Positions 1 to 18,408 of a DNA stretch of 32,000 nt are shown piece after piece. The notes below the pieces were generated by a model that saw only the letters and a program-made list of their open reading frames with translations, was not told the origin of the DNA and made no database searches. The stretch spans positions 10,740 to 42,739 of the forward strand of contig NZ_MBKP01000045.1 in NCBI RefSeq assembly GCF_002243045.1, given 5' to 3'. Position 1 is the first letter of the stretch. Every line of letters begins with the position of its first letter. The DNA comes from Methanolobus psychrotolerans (lineage in GTDB: Archaea > Halobacteriota > Methanosarcinia > Methanosarcinales > Methanosarcinaceae). The position numbers were made by a program, and so were the translations under genes.

Positions 1-144
1 TTCAGAATTGAAAGTGGCAATTATGCTTCTGCTGGCAACAACCTCAACACGCCCACCCACACTGACAAGAGTTTTGAGAATTAACTCTATCTGTGAAGGA
101 GTTGCATTATCTGCAACCCTTACAATATGCGTTTCAACAGGCAT
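1..144 (-). CDS. Partial CDS: the first 48 codons, continuing off the left edge. Hypothetical protein and probable fourth gene of the operon.
   Basis: ATG at 144..142 lies 5 nt after the TAG stop (150-152) of the upstream gene. The frame stays open to position 1 (MPVETHIVRVADNATPSQIELILKTLVSVGGRVEVVASRSIIATFNSE...). This ORF is missing from the supplied track because it is truncated. It has a faint resemblance to subtilase-propeptide-like alpha/beta units, which is not verifiable here. Confidence 0.4.
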   Translation of the reverse strand, partial: MPVETHIVRVADNATPSQIELILKTLVSVGGRVEVVASRSIIATFNSE

Positions 145-149
145 TCAAT

Positions 150-1241: not shown

Positions 1242-1257
1242 TCCACCCCTCCATAGA

Positions 1258-1665: not shown

Positions 1666-1741
1666 AGTATTACCTCCTTCAATAATCTATGAAAAATTAA
1701 TCAATGCAGACATTCCTGCATTGATCCATATTATACCTGCC

Positions 1742-2353
1742 TTATTGAGAAGAACTCTCTTTGACCCTGACGGTTGGAATAGCTCTCTCCGGTGGTGGCA
1801 CTGGTTTTAAGGTTGTGCGCAGCAAGCTTGTACCTTCTTCACTGAAAGTATACTTTGATTTATATGTTGCATTGTAGGTTGAAGTATATGCAACATTGGT
1901 AGTGTTCTCGGCACTGACCTTAGCTTTGCCGAAAAGAAGACCTGCAAGTCCACTAGATTTGTAACTTCCACTTATCTTTGACTGGTTAGTGAACTTGAAC
2001 TCCCTGCCATATTTCTTTTCTGTTGAATACTCCATCTTCATTGAAATGGTCATTTTGACCTCAATGATAGACTCGGTGAATTCATAGAAACGTGGTTCCA
2101 GCCCATAAGTTAACAATGACATGGGTTTATCGTTAGTTACCACATTAGTGGCAGTCACATTCCCATCCTCGTCAACTGTTTCCTCTATATAGAGAATAAC
2201 ACTTCCAGCCTCAAGTTCTGTTCCTGCAAGGGCCTGCGCGACATTAATAGAATTTATGTCAAGAGCGGTCTGCCCCTCTGCAATGGCAAAAGCCATTTCT
2301 TTTATCATGTCCCCAAAAGGAACATCTAACAGTTTCTGACCAACAGATACCAT
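1742..2353 (-). CDS. Hypothetical protein, the long paralog and first gene of the operon
   Basis: ATG at 2353 is preceded by GGGAGG. The 203-aa ORF carries the same motif set as the 135-aa ORF plus inserted segments. I do not recognise the family. Confidence 0.7.
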   Translation of the reverse strand: MVSVGQKLLDVPFGDMIKEMAFAIAEGQTALDINSINVAQALAGTELEAGSVILYIEETVDEDGNVTATNVVTNDKPMSLLTYGLEPRFYEFTESIIEVKMTISMKMEYSTEKKYGREFKFTNQSKISGSYKSSGLAGLLFGKAKVSAENTTNVAYTSTYNATYKSKYTFSEEGTSLLRTTLKPVPPPERAIPTVRVKESSSQ

Positions 2354-2566
2354 AAAAAGCCTCCCAAATTTTCGGTACTATATGATACGAAACAATATAA
2401 TTTAAAGACTTTGGTAAAAATAAGATGCATAATATAAAAAAGAGATTTGAGTGTGTCTGCACACATTAAAAATGCACATAATTAATCTAAAAAAATATGT
2501 GATTTTACAGCTTATGCTCTATACCCTGACTTTTGCTTAATGCTACAAGAAAACAATCAGATCCAT

Positions 2567-3769
2567 TCAAAAAGCACATGCCTGGACCATTGCCAATCTA
2601 TTAACTGCCTCGAATATCCGACAGATAACAAGAGTTGCATATGCTCCACGAGGTAGCTCGAAAGACATGACCACTTTCATCATACCCCCTTCTCTGCTAA
2701 GCTCATCCGGGCTGACCTCAAGTATCCGGAGATGTTCCGGGAACACGAGTAAAGGACGATGTTCTTCTTTTAAGTAAAAACCATGAGTCTTCAAACCTAA
2801 CTGAGAAACAGAAATACCTTCTGACCTCAGAACAGACTCATAAGCTTCTCTCTGTTCCGGATGCAGTAGTTTTTTTAAGTTATGACCGGGAAGGGGGAAA
2901 CTCAGGTTTTTGAACTCCTCAAGTTTCAGTTTATCGAGCCTGTCGTAGAATAACAGTTCCCCTGCGACATAATCTATAGATACTAACCTGTCCATTGTAA
3001 TATTCTTTTCCAGAAAACGTGAAACTGCAGAATTCCATAAATAACTCTGGTAAGCAAAAAGAGGGAGGGTCCGTTCAAACTCCGGAAGAAGAGAGAGCGC
3101 ACCTTTGAAGTCCCAGGGACGCCTGGAAAGATGAGCCATACTCCTGCCATAATGATGCATACGCAACACCCTGGCAAGATAGGTCCAGTTACCCCAGTTA
3201 TCCTGGATTGTTCGTTTAACCCGGGACTCCTCCCCCTCTGCTGAAAATGAAGCGACTATCATCCTGAACGCAATCTCATAGTGTCCAAGGAGTATGTAAC
3301 GCATAGCAAAACCTTGCCCGTTACGAAGGCACCCGAATCGCTGTGAATCAAAATAATTGATGATTCCAAACCTGGAAACACTCTCACAACTCCCTTCAAA
3401 TGCCTTTAACTGCGATTGCGGAACCTTACGTATAACTATACGAAAACGATTTCCTTTGACATCTTTCCCGGATAATGGATGGTCCATCCTGCCAAGATAC
3501 TGCAGGGTCAGACCTGCTTTATCGTAGGATATGTCACTACCTTCCACTGCTATAAGCTGCCGGGTTATGGCTTGCCTGTCCTTAAGCCCTGCATAGGAGA
3601 ATTTATCCAGCGGGACCCCGCTGTTCTTTGCCAGCATCCGAAGAGCATCCATAGTATTATACTTCTGCTTCATCAACAGATACACACGCCATGTACCCTC
3701 TTCGGAGAATATCTGCGGAATGTATACCTCATCAACCTGAAAATCGGAAGGAATCGCCTTTAACTGCAT
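2567..3769 (-). CDS. truD: tRNA pseudouridine synthase D (TruD family)
   Basis: 400-aa ORF with GGAGGT upstream of the ATG. TruD hallmarks are present: the GLKDRQA catalytic-Asp motif and NYFDSQRFG. Confidence 0.85.
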   Translation of the reverse strand: MQLKAIPSDFQVDEVYIPQIFSEEGTWRVYLLMKQKYNTMDALRMLAKNSGVPLDKFSYAGLKDRQAITRQLIAVEGSDISYDKAGLTLQYLGRMDHPLSGKDVKGNRFRIVIRKVPQSQLKAFEGSCESVSRFGIINYFDSQRFGCLRNGQGFAMRYILLGHYEIAFRMIVASFSAEGEESRVKRTIQDNWGNWTYLARVLRMHHYGRSMAHLSRRPWDFKGALSLLPEFERTLPLFAYQSYLWNSAVSRFLEKNITMDRLVSIDYVAGELLFYDRLDKLKLEEFKNLSFPLPGHNLKKLLHPEQREAYESVLRSEGISVSQLGLKTHGFYLKEEHRPLLVFPEHLRILEVSPDELSREGGMMKVVMSFELPRGAYATLVICRIFEAVNRLAMVQACAF

Positions 3770-4126
3770 ATGCTACCTCCGGTATCCGAAAAGAGCGACT
3801 TTAGAGAGAACATCATCCATTATTTGCATATATTATATGCACCTGCCATACGCAACTGCCCCGGAATGGCATTGGAGGTCACGGACAATGAGAACAGGAC
3901 CTGGCTAGTAAGGAAAAAGACGTACAGTAGAAGAAGAGAAATAATACACAAACCAAAAGGTATGCCCATCATGCGCTCCATTTTTAAGATACCTGCACAA
4001 TGCGCCATATATTGTGCTTGTATTTAGATGTATGCTAAGGAAACATAGCATAAAATATATCTGAAAATATAAGAAATAGCTAACATCAAACAGCATATCA
4101 AAAAAGATGAAGGATGACCGGCAAGA

Positions 4127-4723
4127 TCATCCCTGTACCTGGGACCTGCCCAGTTCAAATGCTTTTATATTAATATCGATCGTTTTTTGAGGGACCAGTT
4201 CCCTGACACATTCAAGCAGGGTTTCAACAGGTATTGGCAGGTAATTTGAGACAGCACCCACCATGACAACATTCATGGACTGTGCATGTCCTGCCTCTTT
4301 TGCAAGCTCAGTGGCGTTGAAAGCTTTAACTTCATGGGTCTCTTTGAGTTTTAAAATAATAGTAGCAACATCCGGATAAGTGCATAAACCTGAAGTTACA
4401 GTTACCGGAAGTATTGGATCAGTATTCACTATTATGACACCATCATCGGAAAGATACTCAAGATACCTCAATGCCTCACTCGGTTCAAGGGCAAACAGTA
4501 CATCTGCACCTTTCAGAGGGATCATGGAACCAAGTTCACAACCAAGTCTTATGTGATTAACTACAGAACCGCCACGCTGTGCCATTCCGTGAGTTTCTGC
4601 TGCACGCACAGGCATGTTTTCCTTCACAGCTGCCTTTCCTATGATATCGGATGCAAGTATAGCACCCTGTCCACCAACGCCGGCGATGACAAGGTCAAAT
4701 TGGGATATTCCGGGCGCACTCAT
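4127..4723 (-). CDS. iorB: Indolepyruvate:ferredoxin oxidoreductase, beta subunit
   Basis: I chose ATG at 4723 (MSAPGISQFDLVIAGVGGQGA...). It overlaps the iorA TGA in an ATGA arrangement. The sequence shows a pyruvate/ketoisovalerate oxidoreductase gamma-type fold pattern (GVGGQG, AETHGMAQRGG). Confidence 0.85.
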   Translation of the reverse strand: MSAPGISQFDLVIAGVGGQGAILASDIIGKAAVKENMPVRAAETHGMAQRGGSVVNHIRLGCELGSMIPLKGADVLFALEPSEALRYLEYLSDDGVIIVNTDPILPVTVTSGLCTYPDVATIILKLKETHEVKAFNATELAKEAGHAQSMNVVMVGAVSNYLPIPVETLLECVRELVPQKTIDINIKAFELGRSQVQG

Positions 4724-6549
4724 TTCTTCACCTCCGAGATAGCATCGAACTTGCACATGCGGGAACATACTCCACAGCCAGTGCACATGTTATTGATAGA
4801 TGCCTTTTTGGACTTTCCATCAAATTCAATTGCAGGGCAACCTAGATTTACACATATCCTACAGCCCGTACATTTGTCAGCATCGATAGTAAATGGCTTC
4901 CTTCGAACACCGGCACGTTTTGCATCGATGACACAATACTGTCTGGTAATGACAACAGACGTACCTTTATAACTTTTTGCCCTTTTGAAGACCTCTTCAG
5001 TCTGCTGAAGGTCATAAGGATCTACAACTTCCACAAACTCCGCACCAAGTCCTCTGCATAGGGCTTCAAGAGATACTTCCACTGTTTGCTCACCTGTTGC
5101 AGTCATACCCATTCCTGGATTTGGCTGATGACCGGTCATTGCGGTTATACGGTTGTCCACGATGGTTACGGTGATGTCAGCTTTATTATAGATTGCATTG
5201 AGCAGGCCGTTCATACCTGTGTGGAAGAATGTGGAGTCACCAATTGAACAGCATATAGGTTTTTTCTCCCCGGCCTGGTACATCCCACTTGCAACAGTTA
5301 TACTTCCACCCATACAAAGCGTGGTATCAACTGTACCACTCTGGATCCCTAGAGTGTAACAACCGATATCGCTCGGGAAGATGGCATCCTTACCATACAC
5401 TTTTTTCATGACGTGGAAAGTTGCCCTGTGAGAGCATCCCGGACACATGACAGGAGGACGCATAGGAAGGTCGATCCTGCATGCATTGTAATCAAAATCT
5501 TCTCCTACATCAGCCGGAACATCAGTCCTTTCAAGTCCGAGGACTTCTGCAAGGACATCTGCACATATATCGGTGTTCAGCTCGAACACTCTTGGAACAG
5601 GACCCTGCATCTTGCCGGTTATTTCCACTCCTGAACCTGCCTGCTGTGCTATTATCCTGACCTGCTCTTCAACGACAGGCTCCATTTCCTCGAAAACAAG
5701 AACGCGATCTGAATTCTCAATGATGGTCCGGATCTTGTGCTCAGGAACAGGATAGGTGCCTATCTTGAGGAATGAGGCGTTTATACCCAGTTTAATGAGT
5801 GCTTCTTTAGCATAGACAGAAGCAATTCCTGATGCTATGACACCGAGCTTTGCACCTTCCCGGATTTCCAGCTCGTTCCAGGGAGAATCCTCGAGTTCCC
5901 TGAGGATGTCCTTTTGCAGTTCAAGCAGGTGAACATGCTGCACCCTGGCATTCTTAGGGACCATTACCCATCTTTCGAGTTCCTTCCGGAAGTCTGCCAC
6001 AGGCTTTGTTTCATTTACAGGTCCAAGTTCCACATCGGATTTCCCATGAGAGATACGTGTTGTGGGCCTGAAAATAACAGGCATCTGAACCTTATTCGAT
6101 AACTCGAATGCATAGGTTATCATGTCCTTTGCTTCCTGTGGTGTTGACGGGTCCAGACATGGAATAAGTGAAAATTGTGAGTACCTGCGGGTGTCCTGCT
6201 CATTCTGCGATGAATGGCATGAAGGGTCATCTGCAACAATTATTATCATACTACCCTTGACACCCGTGTATGCGAGAGTCATTAACGGGTCTGCTGCAAC
6301 GTTAAGCCCGACATGCTTCATGGTGACTACGGAACGCACACCAGCCATCGCAGCACCGGCTGCCACTTCAAAGGCAACCTTCTCATTGACCGACCACTCT
6401 ACGTAAAAATCCCTTTCCTTCATTGCTGCCAGTGTACCGATAATCTCAGATGACGGTGTCCCAGGATACCCGGATATGACCTGTCCGCCACCTTCCACGA
6501 TACCGCGTGCAATTGCAACGTTTCCCAGCATGTACTCGCGTGTGCTCAT
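4720..6549 (-). CDS. iorA: Indolepyruvate:ferredoxin oxidoreductase, alpha subunit
   Basis: 609-aa ORF with AGGAG upstream of the ATG. It has a TPP-binding GDSTFFHTG motif and two C-terminal 4Fe-4S motifs (CTGCRICVNLGCP, CTGCGVCSRMC). Confidence 0.9.
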   Translation of the reverse strand: MSTREYMLGNVAIARGIVEGGGQVISGYPGTPSSEIIGTLAAMKERDFYVEWSVNEKVAFEVAAGAAMAGVRSVVTMKHVGLNVAADPLMTLAYTGVKGSMIIIVADDPSCHSSQNEQDTRRYSQFSLIPCLDPSTPQEAKDMITYAFELSNKVQMPVIFRPTTRISHGKSDVELGPVNETKPVADFRKELERWVMVPKNARVQHVHLLELQKDILRELEDSPWNELEIREGAKLGVIASGIASVYAKEALIKLGINASFLKIGTYPVPEHKIRTIIENSDRVLVFEEMEPVVEEQVRIIAQQAGSGVEITGKMQGPVPRVFELNTDICADVLAEVLGLERTDVPADVGEDFDYNACRIDLPMRPPVMCPGCSHRATFHVMKKVYGKDAIFPSDIGCYTLGIQSGTVDTTLCMGGSITVASGMYQAGEKKPICCSIGDSTFFHTGMNGLLNAIYNKADITVTIVDNRITAMTGHQPNPGMGMTATGEQTVEVSLEALCRGLGAEFVEVVDPYDLQQTEEVFKRAKSYKGTSVVITRQYCVIDAKRAGVRRKPFTIDADKCTGCRICVNLGCPAIEFDGKSKKASINNMCTGCGVCSRMCKFDAISEVKK

Positions 6550-6665
6550 GATAATCTCCTGCTAGCCCTTACTTAATAATTAGTGATAAAGATATCTAAG
6601 AAAAACAGAATCGTGTTACTGTGTGACAGAGGAAGAGGATTTGATGTTTTTAAAGAAAAGTGATT
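6513..6665. repeat. Direct repeat copy 1: the functional iorA 5' end (first ~12 codons), RBS, 5' leader and a TTTAAAAA TATA-like box
   Basis: Aligns with 7146-7295. The core 6531-6575 is identical to 7167-7211 (45 bp). The flanks are diverged, with a 7-bp indel and scattered substitutions. Confidence 0.85.
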
Positions 6666-6886
6666 GGTTTCATATACCCTTGTGAATTATCAAAACAGTC
6701 CTGTTTAATTTACATGTTATGTAAAGCCACCTTTACTTAGAAGTCTGCTCAACATTCTAAGTAAAGGATTCTTTGCTTAGAACAAAGAATAGCACTGAAA
6801 AATCAGAAAAAATAAATATGATATTCTCATGATTGACCCGCAAAAGAAACATTACATTTATACAGAATCAAAACGGATTAAATAAT

Positions 6887-7132
6887 ATGAGTTCATCAGC
6901 GGACATTGAGAACATGCTTCACAATATTGATAATGAACTGCACACAATCCTCAGCATGCTCAGGAAAAAGAGTACAACAGACCCAAAAGAAATTGTAGAA
7001 TCATCTCTGGGAGCATGGGATTTTGATATTGATAGCGAAGAGTTTGTAGATAAACTCAGGAAATCCTCATGCACCGTTCATGGAAGAGGGAAAACGAGTA
7101 ATCGCTTTTCCTTATTCACCGATAGGGACTAG
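6887..7132 (+). CDS. Small hypothetical protein (81 aa), possibly an orphan antitoxin-like protein
   Basis: This is the ATG-initiated part of track ORF 6833..7132. The segment SLGAWDFDIDSEEFVDKLRKS resembles the G.WK...D.EEF...LR tail common in small archaeal PIN-associated antitoxins. There is no partner gene. The ORF ends 14 bp before the repeat junction. Confidence 0.35.
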   Translation: MSSSADIENMLHNIDNELHTILSMLRKKSTTDPKEIVESSLGAWDFDIDSEEFVDKLRKSSCTVHGRGKTSNRFSLFTDRD

Positions 7133-7185
7133 GCATTTGTATTCATTTGCAACGTTTTCCAGCGCCTGTACTCGCGTGTGCTCAT
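7129..7185 (-). pseudogene. Truncated duplicate of the iorA 5' end (18-codon remnant)
   Basis: It reads MSTREY, identical to the iorA start, then shifts frame through an indel and stops at TAG (7129-7131). It is preceded by the duplicated RBS, leader and TATA-like box. Confidence 0.75.
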
Positions 7186-7295
7186 GATAATCTCCTGCTA
7201 GCCCTTACTTATTGATAAAAACATCTAAGAAATACAGAATCGTGTTACTGTGTGATAGAAGAGGAGGAATTTGGTTGCATTTTTAAAAAATAGAA
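7146..7295. repeat. Direct repeat copy 2: diverged duplicate of the iorA 5' end and promoter region
   Basis: See the entry for 6513-6665. The 45-bp perfect core is 7167-7211. The copy lies immediately downstream (minus-strand sense) of the DGR terminator region. Confidence 0.85.
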
Positions 7296-7329
7296 AGTGA
7301 GGTTGGAATCAATTAGTTGATACTATACT

Positions 7330-7382
7330 TTAAAACAAATTCCACCGCCGCTTTCGAAGATTTAGCCTACTTGAAGCAGTGG
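7330..7382 (-). terminator. Putative terminator of the DGR transcript (hairpin plus T-tract)
   Basis: The minus-strand RNA reads CCACUGCU...(loop)...GGCGGUGG, giving an ~8-bp stem with two G-U pairs. It is followed by AAUUUGUUUUAAAG. Oligo-T tracts are archaeal termination signals. Confidence 0.35.
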
Positions 7383-7486
7383 AGTCTTGCTTTTTGTCCA
7401 ATTAACTGGCACTGGGTCGTGGTCTGGTCATTATCATTGCTCTGGAACATTATCCCTGAACAACGTTCTTCCGGCAAGATACTGAG

Positions 7487-7614
7487 CTGAGAAGACGGAA
7501 ACCGATGTTGTTGTTGCTGTTGTCCGGGTTGTTGTTGTTGCGATTTGCTGACCGACAGTTCCTGGCGTTGTTGTTCCAGCTACCGCCACGTTTGACCCGG
7601 TTGGAGCTACTTCC
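7487..7614 (-). repeat. DGR template repeat (TR), non-coding, 128 bp
   Basis: It aligns without gaps to 9626-9753. On the minus strand it holds 13 AAC and 1 AAT codons in the VR frame. All 17 differences from the VR fall on TR adenines. It begins 5 nt after the RT stop codon. Confidence 0.95.
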
Positions 7615-7619
7615 GATCA

Positions 7620-8630
7620 CTAACCCTGAAAGTACATCCTGTTGAAGATGTCTTTCCTTAGATGATAGGTATTCCCGATTTTTAAGTGTTCCGTGATGCT
7701 CATGATAGATCGTGTGTACGTCTCTTCGGAAATTAGACCTTCCAAAAACTCATTATGTCTCAATTTCAACTTTTTCAGCGCCCTTCTTTTGTTTTCCTGC
7801 TTTATACGAAGGAGGTGCGGAAATATCCTGCATCCGAGGAACGACAATCCCTGGGAAACCGGAGCAATGACCGTTGCTGTTGCCTTGAGTTCCAGTTTAA
7901 GTTCCGTTCTCAGGAAATCATTGATGAAGGAGTGAAGAAGGTGCAATTCCTCTTTTTCGTCTGCGAAGAGGATGAAATCGTCCATATACCTGAGGTAATA
8001 CCTGACCCTGAGAGTATCTTTCACATAGTGATCGAGACTGTTGAGATAAAAATTAGCGAAATGCTGGCTTGTAAGATTGCCTATGGGGATGCCCTTTCCG
8101 GGGATATCGGACTGCGGGGAGTCAATAATAGTGTGCAGAAGCCATAGAAGATCAGGGTCCTTGAACTTTGTAGAGAACATTGCTTTTAAGATGCTTTGGT
8201 CAATGGTTTCGAAGAACTTCCTGATATCACATTTAAGAAAATACTTATTCTTGCGGGAATAAGTCTGAGCCTGTTTTATGGCGCGATGCGTCCCTTTACC
8301 TGTCCTGCAGGCATAGCTGTGATAAATGTAGCTCTTTTCCAGCAGGGGTTCGATGATCCGGCACAGAGCATGATGCACTACCCTGTCCCTGATGTCCGAC
8401 GCAGCTATTTCCCTGAGTTTAGGCTCCCTAATCTGGAATCTTCTCAATGGACGTGGTGCGTATGTCCGGTTAAGGAGTTCTTCCTGCAGGCACAAAAGCT
8501 CGGTTTCCATGTTGAAATAAAACTGTGATACCCTTGCCCTGTCTTTCTTGCCCTTGATAGCCGTTTTTGCAGCGGCGTGGAGGTTATCGAAAGATGTTAT
8601 TTCCGGGTACAGGTTGCCATAGCGCTTCAA
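7620..8630 (-). CDS. DGR-type reverse transcriptase
   Basis: 336-aa ORF with RT motifs: [13 protein letters not shown], the catalytic YMDDF, and the DGR-diagnostic IGNLTSQ ([ILV]G...SQ where group II intron RTs have QG...SP). The N-terminus [26 protein letters not shown] is typical of DGR RTs. The start is TTG, overlapping the avd TGA as TTGA. The gene ends with the tandem stops TAG TGA. Confidence 0.92.
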
Positions 8631-8971
8631 GCCTGTGCACTTCCCCTGAGCCAGGCACCAGTCATCCTGCCCACCTCGTTGATGTGTATCATTGCATATT
8701 CGAACTGTTTGTTGGAGAGATAATGTTGTTCATGGCAGATGCGCAGGAGTATCCTGAGCTTCTCGAACTTGATATTGATCATCTTAAAGCCGGTTTTCCT
8801 TGCATATGTATCGTATCTGAACTCGATGATGTCTTCAAGTATGTCAAGAGCAAGGTTGTCTATTCGTGTGGTAAAAGTGAACCTCACTTTTTTAGGGAAT
8901 TTCTCAGTAGTATTGAGCAGCCATTTCAGAAAATCCGTCCACTTGACAAATAACTGCAGTTCGTCATCCAT
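8627..8971 (-). CDS. avd: Accessory variability determinant (Avd), four-helix-bundle family
   Basis: I chose ATG at 8971 (MDDELQLFVKWTDFLKWLL..EKFPKKVRFTF..RID..ALDILEDII....LRILLRICHEQHYLS...EVGRMTGAWLR). The pattern matches Avd / 23S-IVS four-helix-bundle proteins. The gene overlaps the HRDC gene end by 8 nt. Confidence 0.8.
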   Translation of the reverse strand: MDDELQLFVKWTDFLKWLLNTTEKFPKKVRFTFTTRIDNLALDILEDIIEFRYDTYARKTGFKMINIKFEKLRILLRICHEQHYLSNKQFEYAMIHINEVGRMTGAWLRGSAQA

Positions 8972-9470
8972 CCTCCGGCTCCTCCTCCTTCGTTTCCTCT
9001 GCAACCTGCTGACCGTGCGATGCGATTATCCCGAGGATGTCCCTGCCGTATTTTTCCGTCTTCCCCTTGCCGATGCCCTCGATGGCCTGCAGGGCATTGA
9101 GCGACAAGGGCCGCGTCACCGCGACCTTGGCAAGCTGCATATTGTTGCATATTATGTAAGGCGGCACTCCCTCCTCCTTGCTCCTTTCAGCTCTCCACTC
9201 CCGGAGCACCTTGAACAGCGGCCAGTCATTTTCGCTCAGTATCTTCTTGTACCCTTCGTCTTTGTTTTCCTGCTGCTTCCGGGCATTGCCACCTTCCGAA
9301 GGTACAAGCTGCGTATATTCAACAAGCACGGTCCAGAAGTACTCATTCTTGCGCTCAAAAAAGTTGCTTTCCCATCTCAGAATATCCTTGTCCGCAAGAA
9401 AGTTGCACATCGCAGCGTCCGGGAAACTCTCGGACTTTTCCTCATACTTGATGGTGAATATTTTGAGCAT
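8964..9470 (-). CDS. HRDC-domain DGR accessory protein
   Basis: 168-aa ORF. The C-terminal half matches the HRDC pattern (LFKVLREWRAERSKEEGVPPYIICNNMQLAKVAVTRPLSLNALQAIEGIGKGKTEKYGRDIL). I do not recognise the N-terminal ~70 aa. Confidence 0.8.
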   Translation of the reverse strand: MLKIFTIKYEEKSESFPDAAMCNFLADKDILRWESNFFERKNEYFWTVLVEYTQLVPSEGGNARKQQENKDEGYKKILSENDWPLFKVLREWRAERSKEEGVPPYIICNNMQLAKVAVTRPLSLNALQAIEGIGKGKTEKYGRDILGIIASHGQQVAEETKEEEPEDG

Positions 9471-9495
9471 GCTTTTTTTCTCACAATAGATTTTT

Positions 9496-9556
9496 GGCGC
9501 GGCTTGCGCACCTCGCCTGTGCGGCTACGCACGCACCTGCTCGGGCTTCAGCCGCA
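9496..9556 (-). other. GC-rich structured island between the VR/target stop and the HRDC gene
   Basis: This ~60-bp stretch is very GC-rich within an AT-rich spacer. GCGGCT occurs twice (9499-9504, 9521-9526) and its complement AGCCGC occurs at 9550-9555, giving a 7-bp stem TGCGGCT/AGCCGCA. GCACCT.GC is also directly repeated. Confidence 0.4.
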
Positions 9557-9615
9557 TTTTTTCTTTTGTAAAGTAATTTTTCAATAAAGTTGTAAAGTGG
9601 TAAAGCAGTAAGTGG

Positions 9616-11829
9616 CTACACTGCCCTGAGAAGACGGAAACCGATGCTGTCGCTGCTGCAGTCCGGGTTGCTGCCGTTGCGACTTGCTGACCGACAGTAC
9701 CTGGCGTCGCTGACCCAGCTACCGCCACGTCTGACCCGGCCGGAGCTACTTCCATCTTCCCAGGCACTACCATCAGTAGGTGCATTCTCATAAGAATCAT
9801 GCCACCTGTCCTGGCACCATTCCCAGACATTGCCGTGCATATCATACAAACCCCAGGGATTCGGCTTCTTCTGACCAACAGGATGTGTCTTATCTCCTGA
9901 ATTACCACCATACCAGGCATAATCTCCAAGTTTTGATTCACTATCCCCAAATGAATACCTCGTGGTCGTGCCTGCCCTTGCAGCATACTCCCACTCAGCT
10001 TCAGATGGAAGGCGGTACTTGTCCGTGCCTTCCTTTGCGTTCAGCTTCTTGACGAACTCCTGTACATCATTCCATGAAACCTGTTCAACAGGATTATTGT
10101 CACCTTTAAAACGCGATGGATTGTTACCCATTATCTCAACCCACTGCTCCTGAGTCACTTCATACTTGCCAAGATAGTAGGCCTTCCCGATGGTCACTTC
10201 GTGAACGGGTCTTTCATCGGAATCTCCATCATCTGAACCCATCTCAAACTCGCCCGCCGGAATCAGCACGAACTCCATGCCAATGGAGTTGGTGTAGGTC
10301 TTGGGGGTGGTCTGCTTACTGGCAGTTGAGGTAGCTTTCTCCTCGGTGACCGCGGGTGTGGTTTGAGTAACGGCTGGTGAAGGATTGGCGGCCGCAAGCT
10401 CAGCCTCAGTAGCAGCCGGTGAAGGATCAACGACCTCGGTCTTCTGGGGAACAACAGCATTCTGATTCCCTGAATTGTCCGCCAGCAGCGGCGAGAACAT
10501 CCAGTAGCCTGCAATAACGATAATGATCAATACGGGAATAAAAAGCAATTTACGGCCTGCATTTCTCTCCTTGGGAGGCGCAACAGGCCGCCTCACGGGA
10601 GCGGGGGCTGGCTTTGAGGGCACCGATACCGGCGGGACAACTGTCGGCTTCGGGGCCTGTTGCTCCCTTTCCAGCGATCTTTTTGCTGAATCCTGCCACT
10701 TGCGGAACTCTTCTTCTTCTTTTCTCTTTTTCTCAGCTTCCAGGACTTTTCTTTGCTCCTCCTCTTTTCTGCGCCGCGCTCTTTCTTCCTCTTCTCTGGC
10801 AGCTTTCAGGCGGGCGGCTTCCTGAGCCTTGCGTTCTTCCTCTCTCCTGCGCCGCTCCACTTCCTCCTTCTCACGGCGCTCCTGCTCTTCCCGTTCCCTG
10901 TGCAGGCGCTCTTCTTCTTTTCTAGCGGCGTCTGCTTTTATGGTAGTGTGCTGCACGACACTGTCCTGCACATTGACAGATGCAGAGGAAGACTCCATTC
11001 CGCTTCTCTGCACGACGCTGTCCCTTACGTTCATTGAGGACGGACCGCCGTCCATGGAAAAGTTGCTGCGCTGGACCACGGAATCTATGATATTGATGAC
11101 CTGTTCGTGCCGGATGACGCCGATCTCCCTTGCGGACCTTACAGTGCTCACAAGGTGCTTGAGTTCGGAGACGATCTCATTGAGAAAACCCTGCAGGCCG
11201 TGAGTTTTATCGGATACTGCACGCAGCATCACCTGGGTCTGTCCTTCCTTTCCTTTTATCAGGACAGTAAGCAAGTAATACGCCTTCTCACCGATGGATT
11301 CACTGGACAGATACAGAATTCTGCCGCCATCCACAGAGCGCTCTTCAACTTTGTACAGGCGATTGGTGCAGGTCTGCATCAGGAATGACAGCACCTGATC
11401 CACACTTACACCCTCAAAATTCATGCCGGCTTCCGCCGAGTGACCACCGGAGGAAAGTTCCAGGAACCTGCCTGTGCCCATGGACATTGCACGCAGGAAA
11501 GGACAAACACAGTGAATTTCCTTACGGCGCATGCTGAGCAGATGCTTTTCATACTCATGATCGTTATACTTGACAGTGGCTTCGATGTATTCTTTATGAA
11601 CACAGCCCAGAGGTTTGAGTACGAATTTAGCAGTACGTTCCTTTGCAGGCGGAATATTGCCAAGTTTCTGTATCCTGTCATCCTGTAAGCTGAAAAGAGA
11701 TTCGGGGTAATCCAGGATGATCTCAACTTCCAAAATGGCAGCAGTGCTATTGTTGATCACTCTTATTCCAAACCTCACACTATTGTCAGGCAGGACTTCA
11801 TAACCCCGTTTGATCTCAATATCTGCCAT
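9616..11829 (-). CDS. DGR target protein. Domain order: cytoplasmic N-terminal domain, charged coiled coil, TM helix, T/P/A linker, FGE-sulfatase (C-type-lectin fold) domain.
   Basis: 737-aa ORF.
- The C-terminal ~230 aa match the FGE-sulfatase/SUMF1 pattern (RPVHEVTI..YEVTQEQW..VSWNDVQEFVKKLN..YRLPSEAEWEYAARAG..NPWGLYDMHGNVWEWCQD..RGGSW).
- There is one hydrophobic helix (LLFIPVLIIIVIAGYWMF) preceded by KERNAGRK.
- An E/R/K-rich segment covers ~10690-10930.
- A triple repeat of DSVVQRS is present. Confidence 0.9.
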   Translation of the reverse strand: MADIEIKRGYEVLPDNSVRFGIRVINNSTAAILEVEIILDYPESLFSLQDDRIQKLGNIPPAKERTAKFVLKPLGCVHKEYIEATVKYNDHEYEKHLLSMRRKEIHCVCPFLRAMSMGTGRFLELSSGGHSAEAGMNFEGVSVDQVLSFLMQTCTNRLYKVEERSVDGGRILYLSSESIGEKAYYLLTVLIKGKEGQTQVMLRAVSDKTHGLQGFLNEIVSELKHLVSTVRSAREIGVIRHEQVINIIDSVVQRSNFSMDGGPSSMNVRDSVVQRSGMESSSASVNVQDSVVQHTTIKADAARKEEERLHREREEQERREKEEVERRRREEERKAQEAARLKAAREEEERARRRKEEEQRKVLEAEKKRKEEEEFRKWQDSAKRSLEREQQAPKPTVVPPVSVPSKPAPAPVRRPVAPPKERNAGRKLLFIPVLIIIVIAGYWMFSPLLADNSGNQNAVVPQKTEVVDPSPAATEAELAAANPSPAVTQTTPAVTEEKATSTASKQTTPKTYTNSIGMEFVLIPAGEFEMGSDDGDSDERPVHEVTIGKAYYLGKYEVTQEQWVEIMGNNPSRFKGDNNPVEQVSWNDVQEFVKKLNAKEGTDKYRLPSEAEWEYAARAGTTTRYSFGDSESKLGDYAWYGGNSGDKTHPVGQKKPNPWGLYDMHGNVWEWCQDRWHDSYENAPTDGSAWEDGSSSGRVRRGGSWVSDARYCRSASRNGSNPDCSSDSIGFRLLRAV
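9626..9753 (-). repeat. DGR variable repeat (VR), the last 43 codons of the target gene
   Basis: 128 bp, 111/128 identical to the TR. All 17 differences are at TR adenines (14 A->G, 3 A->T on the coding strand). It encodes GSSSGRVRRGGSWVSDARYCRSASRNGSNPDCSSDSIGFRLL. Confidence 0.95.
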
Positions 11830-11985
11830 CTATCCAACCATAATTAATATTCGAATGAGTTCAAAGTTTTCATAGAGAGTATAATTAGTCTCATATTTAT
11901 GTGCTTTCTTTTGATTGCATTGAATTTTGCTGTGCAACATCACTAGTCAAATAATATAATAATCCAAAATAAGATAATTTTTGAA

Positions 11986-12053
11986 CCACAGATAAACACA
12001 GATGCACGCAGATGACGTTATTCACATCTGTGTTTATCTGCGTGCATCTGCGG
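11986..12053. repeat. Imperfect palindrome with two mutually exclusive perfect stems
   Basis: 11989-12004 (CAGATAAACACAGATG) is the exact reverse complement of 12025-12040. Alternatively, CAGATGCACGCAGAT (about 11999-12013) is the exact reverse complement of ATCTGCGTGCATCTG (about 12036-12050). The element is built from 10-nt GAT..AC.CA units. Confidence 0.7.
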
Positions 12054-12180
12054 TTAATGAGATCGAAGATTTCGACAGAACTCATAATCGATAAGTATAA
12101 AACCAAAGAACTATGTGCAATATCACTATATTATATAGTACATACATCCCTCTTTTAAGAAACCCAGGGTGGTTTATTTC

Positions 12181-13536
12181 ATGGTTATGGAAATTGAAGA
12201 AAAGGTCATTGAAGCAAAGAAGGCATCCATTATCCTTGCAAGTGTCAGCACTGACACAAAGAATGCCGCTCTTGAAGCAATGGCAAAGGCACTTGACGAT
12301 AATCGCGATCAGATACTTGCAGCAAACCAGAAGGACATTGAAGCTGCTGAGAAGCTGAGAAGGAAAGGTGAACTGTCACAGGCTCTTGTGGACAGGCTTA
12401 AGGTAAGCGACAGCAAGATCAGCGGAATGATAGACGGTATCCGTGATGTGATCAACCTAAAGGACCCTGTGGGTCAAACCATGGATGCCCTTGAGCTTGA
12501 TGAAGGGCTTGAGCTCTACAAGGTAAGCTGTCCTATCGGACTTATCGGAGTTATATTTGAAGCACGTCCTGATGTCGTGCCACAGGTCATGGCACTGTGC
12601 CTGAAAAGCGGGAATGCCACCATATTCAAAGGTGGAAGCGAGGCACTCAACTCCAACCGTGTCATTTTCGACCTCTTGAACCAGGCCGCAGAATCCGTAA
12701 AAGGAATGACAAAAGGCGCATTCCAGCTAATGGAAACAAGGGAAGAGGTCAACGACATCCTCAGCATGGATGCATACATCGACCTTCTCATCCCAAGAGG
12801 CTCCAATGCATTTGTAAAGTACATGCAGAACAACACAAAGATACCGGTCCTCGGCCACGCAGACGGCATATGTCATGTATATGTCGATGACGAGGCAGAC
12901 CTCAAAAAAGCATATGATGTCTGTTTTGACTCTAAAGCCCAGTACCCTGCAGTCTGTAACGCAATGGAGACCCTGCTTATCAACGCAAAGATAGCAGAAA
13001 AATTCCTTCCAAAAATGGCAAGGATGTACGATGAAGCCTGTGTTGAAATGCGCTGTGACGACGCATCTTTTAAGATACTGGAAGAAATAGACTTCATTAA
13101 AAGCGCAGGCAGGGCCACAGAAGATGACTGGAGGACAGAGTACAACGACCTGATACTCTCCATAAAGATAGTAAACTCAATGGAAGAAGCCATTGAACAC
13201 ATCAACAACTATGGCTCCCATCACACCGATGCTATAATAACCGAAAACGACCTCCGGAAGAAGAGATTCACTGATCTGGTCGACTCGTCAAGCGTCATGA
13301 TCAACGCATCCACCAGATTTGCAGATGGTTTTCGTTATGGAAAAGGTGCAGAAGTCGGCATCAGTACCAACAAGATACATGCACGCGGACCTGTTGGTAT
13401 GGAAGGACTGCTCATTTACAAGTACATCCTTGTAGGCAACGGTGACAAGGTTGCAGACTACGTAGGACCAGAGGCAAAGAAATACACACACCGCAGGCTC
13501 AACAAAATAGCTTGCGATGCCCTTTCCAGAAAGTAA
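12181..13536 (+). CDS. proA: Gamma-glutamyl phosphate reductase
   Basis: I chose ATG at 12181, 8 nt after AGGGTGG. The sequence shows an aldehyde-dehydrogenase-like ProA pattern, including the catalytic-Cys context VCNAMETLLI. Confidence 0.88.
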   Translation: MVMEIEEKVIEAKKASIILASVSTDTKNAALEAMAKALDDNRDQILAANQKDIEAAEKLRRKGELSQALVDRLKVSDSKISGMIDGIRDVINLKDPVGQTMDALELDEGLELYKVSCPIGLIGVIFEARPDVVPQVMALCLKSGNATIFKGGSEALNSNRVIFDLLNQAAESVKGMTKGAFQLMETREEVNDILSMDAYIDLLIPRGSNAFVKYMQNNTKIPVLGHADGICHVYVDDEADLKKAYDVCFDSKAQYPAVCNAMETLLINAKIAEKFLPKMARMYDEACVEMRCDDASFKILEEIDFIKSAGRATEDDWRTEYNDLILSIKIVNSMEEAIEHINNYGSHHTDAIITENDLRKKRFTDLVDSSSVMINASTRFADGFRYGKGAEVGISTNKIHARGPVGMEGLLIYKYILVGNGDKVADYVGPEAKKYTHRRLNKIACDALSRK

Positions 13537-13583
13537 CTGATAACAACAAACAAAAAACAGGACAAGACACAGGGGCATCACTT

Positions 13584-14708
13584 TTGAATGACAGGAAAGA
13601 GCTCTTTAAAGATGTGAACCGGATAGTCGTAAAAATAGGCACATCATCCATCAACACCGAAGACGGCAAGCTCAACCGCCAGTTCATGGACAACATGGCT
13701 GCACAGGTTGCAAGACTCCACGAAGCAGGAAAAAAGGTAATCCTTGTAAGCTCCGGCGCCATCGGTATCGGAATAGACATACTGGACTTTGACAGCAGGC
13801 CAAAGGAAATACCGGTCAGACAGGCATGTGCCGCCGTTGGTCAGGGTGTACTCATGCAGGAATGGAGCAATTCCTTTGCAAAGCACAACCTCAAAGTAGC
13901 CCAGATACTCCTTACCTACGAATCATTCTCCAACAGGCTTACATACCTTAACCTCAGGAACAGTATATCCACCCTCCTGAGCTACGGAGTCATACCGATC
14001 ATCAATGAGAACGACAGCACCTGTGTTAACGAAATTGAAGCAACGTTCGGTGACAATGACAAACTGTCCGCAATGGTTGCCAGCAAGACAGAAGCTGACC
14101 TGCTCATCATTCTTTCTGACATTGACGGCCTTTACGACAAGAACCCCAAACGCAACAACGATGCAACACTCCTGAGCCTTGTAGAAGAGATCACTCCCGA
14201 GATCGAAAGCTATGGCGGCAATCCTACAAGCATGAAAGGAGTCGGTGGTATGAGAACAAAACTTGAGGCTGCAAAGATATGCCATATGTCAGGATGCTAC
14301 CTTGTGATCACTAACAGCGCCACCGAGAACGTTGTCACAAAAGTTCTTGACGGGGAAAACATAGGAACACTTTTCCTGGCAAACCGGGAAGTCTACAAGA
14401 ACAGGATACGCTGGATACTACTCTCTAAATCATGTGGCTCCATTGAAGTCGATACCGGTGCCAAAGATGCAATACTTAACAGCATGAGCCTTCTTCCATC
14501 CGGTGTGGTGTCCGTTCACGGTGATTTTAGTAGGGGAGAAATAGTTGAAATTGTCTGTGAAGGACACGTCTTTGCAAAAGGTATCACAGACTACACTTCC
14601 GAAGAACTGGAAAAGGTCAAAGGCCAGCACACCGATATGATAGTTGACATACTAGGTTACAAGAACTACAACCATGTCATAAAGAAAGAAAATATAGGGA
14701 TTTGCTAA
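13584..14708 (+). CDS. proB: Glutamate 5-kinase with a C-terminal PUA domain
   Basis: Motifs VVKIGTSS and SSGAIGIG and a PUA-like C-terminus are present. The start is uncertain: there is no in-frame ATG before the kinase core. I prefer TTG at 13584, 8 nt after AGGGG, over the track start 13512, which would overlap proA by 25 nt. Confidence 0.8.
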   Translation: MNDRKELFKDVNRIVVKIGTSSINTEDGKLNRQFMDNMAAQVARLHEAGKKVILVSSGAIGIGIDILDFDSRPKEIPVRQACAAVGQGVLMQEWSNSFAKHNLKVAQILLTYESFSNRLTYLNLRNSISTLLSYGVIPIINENDSTCVNEIEATFGDNDKLSAMVASKTEADLLIILSDIDGLYDKNPKRNNDATLLSLVEEITPEIESYGGNPTSMKGVGGMRTKLEAAKICHMSGCYLVITNSATENVVTKVLDGENIGTLFLANREVYKNRIRWILLSKSCGSIEVDTGAKDAILNSMSLLPSGVVSVHGDFSRGEIVEIVCEGHVFAKGITDYTSEELEKVKGQHTDMIVDILGYKNYNHVIKKENIGIC

Positions 14709-14827
14709 CCCTTTTTCCGGCCTTATGAAAGAGAGCACATATTTGCTTTTTCAGTAACTTGCATCATGTTTCAAACTAATCCTCAACAATTAATTGTTAA
14801 TACTGACATTCGTATTCAATATTTAAA

Positions 14828-16174
14828 ATGACACTGGAAGAACAGGTACTTGACAGGATTAAACCCATTCCTGAAGAAAAGAAGGAACTAGAAGGAATAG
14901 CTGCAGAACTGCTTGCAAAGGTCAGTGCAGCAGCAAGACATCTGGAAATATCCGGAGTCATACCTAAATTAGTAGGCTCTGCAGCAAGGAACACCTGGAT
15001 ATCCGGTACGCACGACCTAGACGTTTTCATCTCCTTTCCTGCAACCACCAGCCGTGAAGAACTGGAAACTAACGGTCTTCTCATTGCCAGGGAAGTTGCA
15101 AAGGACGGGCAAAACGTAGAGGAACGCTATGCAGAACATCCCTATCTGAACATTGAGTACAAAGGATTCGATGTTGACCTTGTGCCCTGTTTTGCAGTGG
15201 ACTCTGCATCATGTATCATATCTGCGGTTGACAGGACACCTTTCCACAATGAATTCATCAAGATGTGCATCCCTGGTCGTGAAGATGACGTCCTGATTAT
15301 GAAACAGTTCATGAAAGGCACCGGAACCTATGGTTCGGAACTTCGGACCCAGGGATTCTCAGGTTACCTTACAGAACTTCTTATAGTAAATTATGGTTCT
15401 TTCCGCAATACGATCAGAAACGCCTGTAACTGGAAGCCGGGTCTGACAATCGACATAATGGAACATGGAACCATTAAACACGAAGAACCTCTTGTTGTCA
15501 TCGATCCCACTGACCCAAAGAGGAATGTGGCCGCTGCTCTTTCCCTGAACCGTTTCGCACAATTCATCGATGCCTGCAGGACATATACAGAAAAACCTTC
15601 CGAAGATTTCTTTTTCCCGAAAACACCTGAGCCTATGCAGGAAATTGAGATCACCGACATGATGAACTCAAGAGGAAGCTCTTTTATTGCTATTGTTTTC
15701 AAAACCCCGGACCTTGTGGATGACATACTCTACCCACAACTTGACAAAATGCAACACTCTGTCCGTGCATTGTTTGAAGACTACGATTTCCAGGTATTGA
15801 ACTCCGGATACTGGGCAAAAGAAGATGCCATTGTCCTTATAGAGCTAGTTTCATCCAGACTCCCCCTTGTCAAAAAACATATGGGACCACCGGTATGGGT
15901 CAGTGAACATTCCCTTGGATTTAAGGCAAAATATGAGAATTCAGATGAACTCTTTTCCCTGTACATCGAAGACGGATTCTATGTTGCCGATATCAAAAGG
16001 AAGTTCACAACTGCAAAGGAACTCCTCATAGAGAGAATCAAAAACTGCTCACTTGGGAAACACATCGGAAAAGCAGTAACGGAAGGCTTTACTATTCTTG
16101 AAGGTACCGATATAGCAAAAATAGAGGAACCTGATTTCAGGAGATTCCTGCGCAAATGGGAACAAGGTAAATAA
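14828..16174 (+). CDS. cca: CCA-adding enzyme (archaeal class I tRNA nucleotidyltransferase)
   Basis: 448-aa ORF with the class I signature GSAARNTWISGTHDLDVF and an archaeal CCA tail-domain layout. Confidence 0.88.
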   Translation: MTLEEQVLDRIKPIPEEKKELEGIAAELLAKVSAAARHLEISGVIPKLVGSAARNTWISGTHDLDVFISFPATTSREELETNGLLIAREVAKDGQNVEERYAEHPYLNIEYKGFDVDLVPCFAVDSASCIISAVDRTPFHNEFIKMCIPGREDDVLIMKQFMKGTGTYGSELRTQGFSGYLTELLIVNYGSFRNTIRNACNWKPGLTIDIMEHGTIKHEEPLVVIDPTDPKRNVAAALSLNRFAQFIDACRTYTEKPSEDFFFPKTPEPMQEIEITDMMNSRGSSFIAIVFKTPDLVDDILYPQLDKMQHSVRALFEDYDFQVLNSGYWAKEDAIVLIELVSSRLPLVKKHMGPPVWVSEHSLGFKAKYENSDELFSLYIEDGFYVADIKRKFTTAKELLIERIKNCSLGKHIGKAVTEGFTILEGTDIAKIEEPDFRRFLRKWEQGK

Positions 16175-16201
16175 TACCCTCACACTACCCCTCCCTGAGA
16201 C

Positions 16202-17038
16202 TCAAATTCCTTCAAGCCTTTTCTGATAGAAGAAATACTGCTGTGCATAACCACAGTATCGTCCGAAATACATGCGACCCCAGTTACCGATCTTACTTTT
16301 TGTGGCGTTCCCGTTGAAGAAATCATCATGACCGTAGACTGTCCTTACAACTTTTTCCACATGTGTATCCACAGGAAAGGCTTCCATTTTATCAAATGCA
16401 AAAAGAAGTATGCAATCTGCGACTTTCTCCCCTATTCCTTCAAGGAACATCAGCCTCTGTTTTGCAGCATCGTAATCCAATCCAAAAATATCGTCAAGTA
16501 CCAGATTCCCATCTTCCACATGTCTTGCAGCCTTGATAACACGGCCTCCCCTGAAACCAAGTTTGCAGGCTCGCATGTCATCATCACATGCATGGATAAG
16601 TGAACGAGGCTCAGGAAAACTGTAGTAACCTTCCACTATTTCCTCCCCATAGTTTTTGCACATCATGGAAATCCCCCTTTTGATGTTCGGGATGCTCCAG
16701 GCAGTTGCAAGCATATAGGATATGAGACATTCCCATGGTTCCTGCCTGATAAGACGAAGTCCCATATACTTTCTTATGGCTTCATCCATAAAATCATCCT
16801 TATTGACCTCCTGTATTATAGCATCGAGGTCATCGTCAAAACGGAAATAATTCTCAAAGAAGCTCTTTGGAAGCTTTGAATCCACCAGTACCTCACCGCT
16901 TTTACTGTCCTGCTGAAGTCGTGCAACATGACCATTCACAACCCCGGTCCACCAGTCATCGATGTAGTCCCATCGGAATACCTGACCACAATCAAGAGTG
17001 TAGTTAAGGTTGAAGTTCTCGGAGAAAAGAGTGTACAT
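16202..17038 (-). CDS. ogg: 8-oxoguanine DNA glycosylase/AP lyase (HhH-GPD superfamily)
   Basis: It has an OGG N-domain motif LDCGQVFRW, a helix-hairpin-helix LEGIGEKVADCILLFAF, plus FPVDTHV and GYAQQYFF. Confidence 0.8.
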   Translation of the reverse strand: MYTLFSENFNLNYTLDCGQVFRWDYIDDWWTGVVNGHVARLQQDSKSGEVLVDSKLPKSFFENYFRFDDDLDAIIQEVNKDDFMDEAIRKYMGLRLIRQEPWECLISYMLATAWSIPNIKRGISMMCKNYGEEIVEGYYSFPEPRSLIHACDDDMRACKLGFRGGRVIKAARHVEDGNLVLDDIFGLDYDAAKQRLMFLEGIGEKVADCILLFAFDKMEAFPVDTHVEKVVRTVYGHDDFFNGNATKSKIGNWGRMYFGRYCGYAQQYFFYQKRLEGI

Positions 17039-17039
17039 G

Positions 17040-18404: not shown

Positions 18405-18408
18405 CCGG

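Follow-up and report, generated by a model that had tools for sequence, protein, structure and literature searches.

The chromosome of Methanolobus psychrotolerans carries a complete diversity-generating retroelement (DGR), all of whose components are co-oriented on the minus strand at positions 7332-11829 of the 32,000-nucleotide stretch analyzed here (NCBI RefSeq assembly GCF_002243045.1, contig NZ_MBKP01000045.1, positions 10,740 to 42,739 of the forward strand). This stretch is hereafter called the window, and all positions refer to it unless a related locus is named. Along the minus strand the order is the target gene (9616-11829, 737 amino acids), a gene for an HRDC protein (8964-9470, 168 amino acids), avd (8627-8971, 114 amino acids from its ATG), the gene for the reverse transcriptase (RT; 7620-8630, 336 amino acids, TTG start) and then the template repeat (TR; 7487-7614, 128 nt), which starts 6 nt past the RT stop. 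The cassette lies between iorA and proA, and the RefSeq annotation of the RT is only 'RNA-directed DNA polymerase'. An initial annotation of the window had listed these four genes on the minus strand of a Methanosarcinales-type host. The six-frame list of open reading frames (ORFs) returned all four at the coordinates claimed, and exact RefSeq matches for IorA, the RT, the target and a PAS protein identified the host as M. psychrotolerans (Methanosarcinaceae), on a contig that is archaeal and syntenic with its relatives.

In the PDB, the RT matched the Bordetella phage enzyme bRT (8ub7) best, with 187 bits (E 8.4e-54), whereas the highest-scoring group II intron RT reached 83 bits; a global alignment of the RT with bRT gave 38% identity. 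The motifs IGNLTSQ and YMDDF, from which a DGR-type enzyme had been called initially, are both present. All 10 of the 10 key bRT residues compared (K29, F66, R74, I76, D138, I181, G182, Q187, D215 and D216) are kept; in a cryo-EM study of bRT these residues contact the template, the primer and the incoming nucleotide (bioRxiv 10.1101/2023.10.23.563531). The RT also matched phrog_1423 (E 5.5e-116). It fell below every curated cut-off, scoring 142 against 300 for the group II intron model TIGR04416 and 64 against 235 for retron St85, and far under those of the Drt2-5 and AbiA models, in model libraries that contain no DGR-specific RT model. Rfam searches at gathering thresholds over the window, and relaxed over 7200-7700, returned no intron or retron RNA and no matching family. 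Judged by these score gaps and by the architecture that its neighbours share, the RT is one of the DGR RTs.

The 114-residue protein (pI 9.1) scored 101.9 bits against the NCBIfam equivalog NF033474 (DivGenRetAVD, cut-off 80) and also matched PF22296 (bAvd, E 1.9e-19) and phrog_3206 ('Avd protein of DGR', E 3e-26); its mechanically called ORF reaches farther upstream, to a TTG at 9004. The 168-residue protein (pI 5.1) carries an HRDC domain at residues 85-149 (PF00570, E 5.5e-21, 74.7 bits, cut-off 23.8) whose nearest structures are the RecQ HRDC domains 2ma1 and 1wud, while its N-terminal 80 residues were assigned to no family. Both identities agree with those first proposed, and in the survey of Wu et al. 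(PMC5758913) Avd proteins are basic and HRDC proteins non-basic, with a mean pI of 6.9. The HRDC and avd genes overlap by 8 nt (ATGGATGA), with GGAGGA just upstream, and the avd stop TGA overlaps the RT start TTG as TTGA. The junction sequences show both overlaps as the initial annotation had described them, and the three overlapping genes are probably translationally coupled.

A direct repeat of 128-134 nt joins positions 7481-7614 to 9620-9753, and within it the TR aligns, gap-free and at a constant offset of 2139, with a variable repeat (VR; 9626-9753, minus strand) in the region of the final 43 codons of the target gene (residues 693-735 of 737), the two being in the same reading frame. 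All 17 mismatches lie at TR adenines (14 A>G and 3 A>T) and none at the 85 non-A positions; for 17 mismatches to fall entirely within the 43 adenines of 128 positions, the hypergeometric P is 6.8e-10. Of these adenines, 38 occupy the first or second position of a codon, and the VR differs from the TR in 12 of the 14 AAY codons of the latter (13 AAC and 1 AAT). About 23 TR codons could vary, corresponding to roughly 10^22 protein variants, and a stop mutation is possible in one codon only. This is a textbook DGR template design. The TR and VR end identically at their 3' ends (...CATCGGTTTCCGTCTTCTCAG) and diverge beyond. The repeat scan of the window found this one A-biased pair only.

Directly 3' of the TR lies a structured, spacer-like RNA (7332-7497, minus strand) with four main predicted helices. 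When the 450 nt past the RT stop were aligned for the closest loci, a segment of about 165 nt 3' of the TR proved to be conserved. RNAalifold predicted 40 pairs from nine sequences, 27 of them with compensatory changes; 93.8% of the alignment cells pair, as compared with 30-48% in slid controls, and 0 of 500 shuffles reached the observed values. The covariance model R1, built from this RNA, matched 49 times in 85 loci, in each case on the DGR strand and just after the TR. Among the 43 distinct sequences, 90.1% of cells were paired and 39 of 40 pairs compensated (slid controls 33-44%), in an alignment that was fitted to the covariance model and favours the structure to that extent. The M. psychrotolerans copy scores 145 bits against the clade model. 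Invariant motifs are GAUAAUGACCAGAC (7435-7421), GUAG and UCGAA, and in helix 1 the last TR nucleotide and the next 9 nt pair with the invariant GAUAAUGACC, which is followed by AGAC. One related locus (L060) has its TR upstream of the RT gene; the RNA stands 3' of the TR there as well, so that its position goes with the TR rather than with the RT gene. In the phage BPP-1, the TR is followed by a 140-nt spacer RNA that pairs with the 3' end of the TR, supplies the priming adenosine and primes cDNA synthesis, and Avd-binding stem-loops occur downstream of the TR in 207 of 278 DGRs (bioRxiv 10.1101/2023.10.23.563531). By analogy, the post-TR RNA probably corresponds to the BPP-1 spacer RNA. The closing stretch of the RT ORF, immediately before the TR (7625-7650, minus strand), also holds a short hairpin of the ACATCTTC...GAAGATGT type that is conserved in relatives, where at least one change looks compensatory (L008). 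This hairpin may be an RNA element that flanks the TR upstream, or its conservation may merely reflect coding constraint.

The VR, too, is followed by recurring sequence. Directly 3' of the target stop are short CTTTAC-type repeats (9563-9615, minus strand; CCACTTACTGCTTTACCACTTTACAACTTTATTG and one further copy), a candidate target-site element. Comparison of the VR flanks of loci L002-L008, L016, L062, L084 and L086 showed that tandem repeats of the CTTTAC or CTTAC type, with a period of about 8-9 nt and 3-5 copies, come after the stop of every VR-bearing gene in the subclade, second or remote VRs included (L005 5860, L006 5922, L003 3069, L016 72). Between the VR and the HRDC gene there is also a GC-rich, hairpin-prone segment (9496-9555, minus strand, ending ...GCGCC AAAAAT), in the position of the BPP-1 post-VR hairpin; it is positionally conserved in relatives after cassette-adjacent and remote VRs alike. 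The repeats and the GC-rich segment, which recur after remote VRs, probably belong to the target site and not to the HRDC gene. No description of the CTTTAC element for DGR target sites was found in the literature examined.

The target protein is a chimera of a Methanosarcinales-specific N-terminal module (N-module), a transmembrane (TM) helix and a variable ectodomain. The N-module (residues 1-255; 11065-11829, minus strand) leads into three DSVVQRS repeats (residues 249-296), a Glu/Lys/Arg-rich helix (residues 300-392; 10654-10932, minus strand), a Pro-rich stretch (residues 393-420) and a single TM helix detected by hydropathy (residues ~427-449; 10483-10551, minus strand), which is preceded by RNAGRK and followed by a Pro/Thr/Ala linker. 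The C-terminal FGE-sulfatase/C-type-lectin (CLec) domain (residues 519-735; 9625-10275, minus strand; PF03781, E 6.3e-55) carries the VR, and its best solved relative is the Treponema DGR variable protein TvpA (2y3c, E 8.3e-41). Hydropathy revealed no N-terminal signal sequence. Residues 1-426 are predicted to be cytoplasmic, and the Pro/Thr-rich linker and the CLec/VR domain extracellular.

With residues 1-300 of the target we found 167 homologs of 46-71% identity, almost all from Methanosarcinales and anaerobic methanotrophic archaea (ANME); their hosts include Methanosarcinaceae, Methanoperedens, other Methanolobus, Methanosarcina, Methanophagales and Methanogaster. In these homologs the N-module and a TM segment are followed by varied C-termini (pilin-like, FKBP, ricin, TPR, TPM, CARDB and zinc ribbon, with FGE in four), and the N-module is an uncharacterised Methanosarcinales/ANME protein family with interchangeable ectodomains. 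It had no Pfam or PADLOC match, and PADLOC matched no other part of the target either. An AlphaFold2 model from a 40-sequence alignment reached a pLDDT above 90 for residues 1-230 and consists of a beta-sandwich followed by an alpha/beta platform. The best Foldseek matches of this model in the PDB were adaptin and COPI appendage domains with the same two-subdomain order (top match 1e42, E 4e-9; TM-scores 0.34-0.49), a resemblance of predicted fold and not family membership. We considered a resident N-module gene at the iorA-proA site as the point of grafting and rejected it, the family genes of M. sediminis and Methanolobus sp. WCC4 being elsewhere. Since the N-module genes of other Methanolobus stand at unrelated loci, the whole chimeric target came with the island that carries the DGR, and its source was probably another member of the order. 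No recognisable NTPase, kinase, TIR or protease domain was detected in the target, and no conflict-system genes in its flanks. The N-terminal modules of targets at sister loci are TIR (L084 and L085), zinc ribbon plus FYVE (L006) and TPR (L086), and this variety fits the modular, sensor-like targets published for cellular DGRs. In GCA_043729865.1 (L090 6467-9470), an N-module+FGE protein (P0245) and a 178-residue FGE fragment occur beside an MNT/HEPN pair, and no RT lies within 8 kb; these FGE proteins may be remote targets of a DGR or what remains of a DGR since lost.

No close RT was found in other Methanolobus. The nearest protein in a 5.8-billion-cluster database is metagenomic and 70% identical, and the closest RT in the genome-collection scan is 68% identical. 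The closest loci are archaeal, namely an 'uncultured archaeon' (L062; RT 68%, Avd 81%), two 'Halobacteriota' metagenome-assembled genomes (MAGs; L084 and L085, RT 66%), a 111-kb JGI contig with a Methanosarcina-type S-layer protein (L083, RT 66%) and Thermoplasmata MAGs (RT 61%). Some relatives with an RT of about 60% identity lie on short contigs binned to bacteria, and the wider RT clade is mainly bacterial (Bdellovibrionota, Cloacimonadota, Desulfobacterota and Lysobacteraceae). All close RT relatives carry TR/VR pairs. A tblastn comparison with the window proteins showed the order FGE target-HRDC-Avd-RT in about 45 of 79 related loci, and in those loci the TR, where detectable, directly follows the RT and has A-biased mismatches. 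The HRDC gene lies inside the cassette, in the same position in those ~45 loci, as in an HRDC-containing DGR of Architecture C. In the classification of Wu et al. 2018 (PMC5758913), avd-RT-TR is architecture B2 and the HRDC-containing elements, about half of which also have avd, are architecture C. The initial annotation was right that the arrangement differs from that of BPP-1, but the arrangement is not unusual: target-HRDC-Avd-RT-TR is typical of a large, mostly bacterial clade and stands in published classifications, and the architecture is therefore not new.

Two of the related loci deserve separate mention. A Caudoviricetes virus with a Methanosarcinales host (vir525, BK063673.1; L093) has a viral-type DGR RT, 36.6% identical, beside a tail protein, and the post-TR RNA model has no significant match in it; L060, from a Methanosarcinales MAG, has the order TR, post-TR RNA, RT. 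From these two we conclude that Methanosarcinales host at least two DGR lineages. In a Thermoplasmata MAG (CAZFVW010000006.1; L006 1-13729) we observed a direct repeat that recurs every 8,542 bp without a mismatch over 5,187 bp, whose unit contains the whole cassette, a second FGE target and an AbiEi-like gene. This repeat could stem from a small circular element that was assembled as a concatemer, from true tandem duplication or from an error of assembly.

The DGR of M. psychrotolerans is a horizontally acquired island of about 5.4 kb between iorA and proA. Nucleotide synteny by blastn, at 73-86% identity to two complete Methanolobus chromosomes, covers window positions 7-2440, 4124-6604 and 12079-19940, and the intervening ~6605-12078 has no counterpart in those genomes. 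Given the syntenic flanks and this unmatched segment, the cassette is an island within a conserved housekeeping neighbourhood. The flanking genes were identified as iorA/iorB and proA/proB by Pfam and by synteny with the same two genomes, and in the sister genomes a ribosomal-protein operon lies a few kb from the site. The initial annotation had placed the cassette between iorAB and proAB, free of flanking phage or plasmid genes, and had asked whether iorA and proA adjoin where it is absent. The location and the flanks are as it described, and the complete Methanolobus sp. ZRKC5 genome has an empty site, with proA and iorA as divergent direct neighbours 465 bp apart. In M. mangrovi a single unrelated gene separates them.

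We consider it very probable that this island is a complete, apparently functional DGR of the HRDC+Avd, RT-then-TR type, and propose that it acts on a hypervariable surface target. The mechanism would follow that of the Bordetella phage BPP-1 system. HRDC, Avd and RT would be made from their overlapping genes, and the TR would be transcribed together with the ~165-nt structured RNA after it. A complex of RT and Avd would bind this RNA and place the TR 3' end for cis-primed reverse transcription, during which adenines would be miscopied. The adenine-mutagenised cDNA would then replace the VR at the 3' end of the target gene, guided by the shared A-poor TR/VR 3' end and probably by the CTTTAC repeats and the GC-rich segment. 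As a result, the ~23 variable codons would be rewritten in the ligand-binding face of the FGE-type C-type-lectin ectodomain, which would be tethered by the one TM helix to the conserved, Methanosarcinales-specific cytoplasmic module. Such a protein would act as a hypervariable receptor or adhesin at the cell surface, or possibly as a sensor.

Diversification is seen at sister loci. Between the Halobacteriota MAG loci L084 and L085, the Avd, RT, TR and post-TR RNA are 100% identical and the flanks about 96% identical; their VRs (L084 6334-6456 and L085 4903-5025) differ at 19 of 123 positions, and all 19 differences lie at TR adenines. The archaeal DGR subclade therefore diversifies in natural populations. 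The target of L084 and L085 is a TIR-FGE protein adjoining TIR-STAND (AAA_16/NACHT-TPR) and SLATT genes; this arrangement suggests an archaeal conflict system that is diversified by a DGR. The M. psychrotolerans copy, as far as its sequence can tell, is apparently functional, having intact parts and a TR and VR that are identical at every non-A position. The fact that none of these 85 positions has drifted argues for recent retrohoming.

Several points weigh against our interpretation. An independent Logan contig (L001, SRR21765252) is identical over 10704-7182, the VR included, and the VR 3' junction had no exact match in the JGI metagenomes scanned. The search for further VRs covered the window only. 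The predicted membrane topology comes from hydropathy and the positive-inside rule only, and the part given to HRDC, which probably aids nucleic-acid handling, is an inference. The post-TR RNA model has no significant match in BPP-1, and since no homology to the BPP-1 spacer is detectable, the label spacer-like rests on position and analogy. The GC-rich segment gave a single-sequence fold z of -1.2 and no pairs in RNAalifold on eight relatives; because no consensus fold could be shown, we do not claim a post-VR hairpin.

The first two of these points would be expected if the element were a silent or recently inactivated copy, domesticated or fossil, with a frozen VR and a target that is an ordinary fixed surface protein. 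We regard this as the less likely account, though one with a real chance of being correct. It would also suit the occurrence of the island as a single copy in one species only, as well as the finding that three assemblies of the closest relative (L086-L088) likewise share one VR. However, all four ORFs are intact, the catalytic and fidelity residues are kept and the RNA element still scores well against its clade model; no drift has accumulated outside the adenines, and the sister loci L084 and L085 vary A-specifically. Furthermore, assemblies give a consensus and would mask minority variants.

The functional DGR that we favour could alternatively belong to an integrated virus, a plasmid or another mobile element and serve that element, for example in tropism switching. 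The island is missing from sister species, and its GC content reaches 0.52-0.56 in the HRDC gene and the 3' two-thirds of the target, as compared with 0.44-0.46 in the flanks; that of the RT and Avd genes is unremarkable. At the left edge of the DGR part there is a diverged second copy of the iorA 5' end and its upstream region (7144-7311; original at 6510-6672). It comprises the first ~40 nt of iorA and ~120 nt upstream, the copies being about 85-90% identical with small indels; this duplication resembles an integration scar and may be the scar of an insertion event. Among relatives, L083 lies near an integrase, L006 is possibly an 8.5-kb circular unit, and the Methanosarcinales virus described above has its DGR RT beside a tail protein. 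Against this, Pfam, PHROG and synteny revealed no integrase, capsid, terminase, tail, replication, viral or plasmid gene in the island or its flanks, both of which are housekeeping and syntenic, and the duplicated iorA segment is the sole scar-like feature among the hallmarks of prophages and mobile elements. With its one TM helix and its lineage-specific cellular N-module, the target is a membrane protein and not a tail fibre. A viral origin is unsupported, the RT being at most 45% identical to RTs in 50,697 phage records and at most 42% to those in IMG/VR, and the nearest plasmid-borne RTs (42-48% identical) are those of cellular-type DGRs of Prosthecochloris and cyanobacteria. We therefore judge service to a mobile element to be very unlikely. 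Bacterial contamination or a chimeric assembly, which the mostly bacterial RT clade and the several 60%-identical relatives on bacteria-binned contigs might bring to mind, is scarcely credible, because the island lies within one contig of an isolate genome that is syntenic on both sides, at ~80-86% nucleotide identity, with two complete Methanolobus chromosomes, the Logan contig runs from the target interior through the DGR into the Methanolobus-type iorA-5' duplicate, the target N-module is Methanosarcinales-specific and the closest RTs are in archaeal MAGs.

The remaining features of the island and its surroundings are minor. The two iorA-5' copies bracket a 470-bp segment with an orphan ORF of 99 amino acids (6833-7132, plus strand), which had no match in Pfam, PADLOC or PHROG and no tblastn match in related loci and is doubtful as a real gene. 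A palindromic array of ~10-nt repeats (11989-12067; ATCTGYGTKY type, then GGTTAAT) precedes the target gene, just inside the right edge of the island. Repeats of this kind (ATCTGCGTKC type) recur in the Avd-RT spacer of the closest relatives, L086-L088 (L086 2807-2848) and L062 (7314-7346), where they are followed by an AT-rich, TATA-like stretch, and the array may be a site that binds a regulator common to these loci. A TruD tRNA pseudouridine synthase gene (2567-3769, minus strand; PF01142, E 7e-60) stands between iorB and the next conserved gene; it has no nucleotide match at that position in M. mangrovi or ZRKC5 and represents a second indel nearby. A tRNA scan of the window found nothing.

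The initial annotation had also called a cellular DGR in a Methanosarcinales-type chromosome uncommon. This stands for the cultured host and not for the phylum: the 2021 DGR catalogue (Roux et al., PMC8144416 supplement) records DGRs in 'various members of the Euryarchaeota', and with the Halobacteriota and Thermoplasmata MAG relatives found here, the rarity lies in the cultured host. We found no DGR of Methanolobus or another cultured methanogen in the searchable literature, where an earlier catalogue listing is possible, and nothing specific on DGRs of Methanoperedens and Halobacteriota. Archaeal DGRs as such, the cassette architecture and a functional RNA flanking the TR are already known. 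Of cellular DGRs, only that of Legionella has been shown at the molecular level to diversify (PMC10907252), and the archaeal DGRs in the literature examined are viral or from uncultivated lineages. The main value of the present element is thus that its host is in culture and open to experiment; the RNA model specific to the clade, the repeats flanking the VR and the N-module family are of secondary value. A DGR in a methanogen in pure culture would allow direct tests of archaeal retrohoming and of the host factors and cis elements that it needs, and the same strain could show what a hypervariable surface protein does for a methanogen. A bolder claim, which we put forward tentatively and think rather unlikely to hold in full, is that this is the first DGR in a cultivable archaeon and that its target is a new archaeal TM receptor in which a hypervariable extracellular lectin-fold tip is joined, by way of the TM helix and the long charged helix, to a cytoplasmic module predicted to resemble the adaptin/COPI appendage, a platform for protein interactions. 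If true, a DGR would tune outside-in sensing or adhesion, such as virus, partner-cell or substrate recognition, in methanogens and their ANME relatives.

Among known systems, the TvpA element of Treponema denticola (Architecture C, PMC5758913) is in the same architectural group as the Methanolobus DGR. Both are cellular, with an HRDC gene and an FGE-type C-type-lectin target, and Treponema loci occur among the RT relatives at about 42% identity. Unlike the Treponema element, the Methanolobus DGR also has Avd, a TR after the RT and an archaeal host, and its target, one in the window, is not a lipoprotein but a TM-anchored chimera with an archaeal N-module. With BPP-1 (mtd-avd-TR-brt) it shares Avd, A-specific TR/VR differences, a C-terminal VR in a CLec-fold protein and a structured RNA 3' of the TR. 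It differs in having the RT before the TR, an extra HRDC gene, a cellular context and an FGE-type target in place of Mtd; moreover, the BPP-1 VR is followed by a single defined hairpin, whereas the Methanolobus VR is followed by CTTTAC repeats and the GC-rich segment.

Within the archaea, DGRs of DPANN or uncultivated nano-sized archaea were reportedly treated by Paul and colleagues in 2017. Earlier, DGRs had been described in the ANME-1 virus ANMV-1 and in Nanoarchaeota (Paul et al. 2015, PMC4372165). These share with our element archaeal hosts, an Avd-like accessory protein and CLec-type targets, but they belong to a virus or to uncultivated nano-sized archaea and have distant RTs, whereas the Methanolobus DGR lies in the chromosome of a cultured, free-living methanogen and falls in a clade shared with bacteria. 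The clade-5 cellular DGRs of Thiohalocapsa PB-PSB1 and cyanobacteria diversify putative antigen sensors (Dore et al. 2024, PMC10907252; Kaur et al. 2020, PMC7159879). As in Methanolobus, their targets join modular N-terminal domains to a CLec/FGE VR domain at the C-terminus, in some cases with TM segments; in the Methanolobus target, unlike theirs, the N-module is an uncharacterised fold, predicted to be a beta-sandwich and platform.

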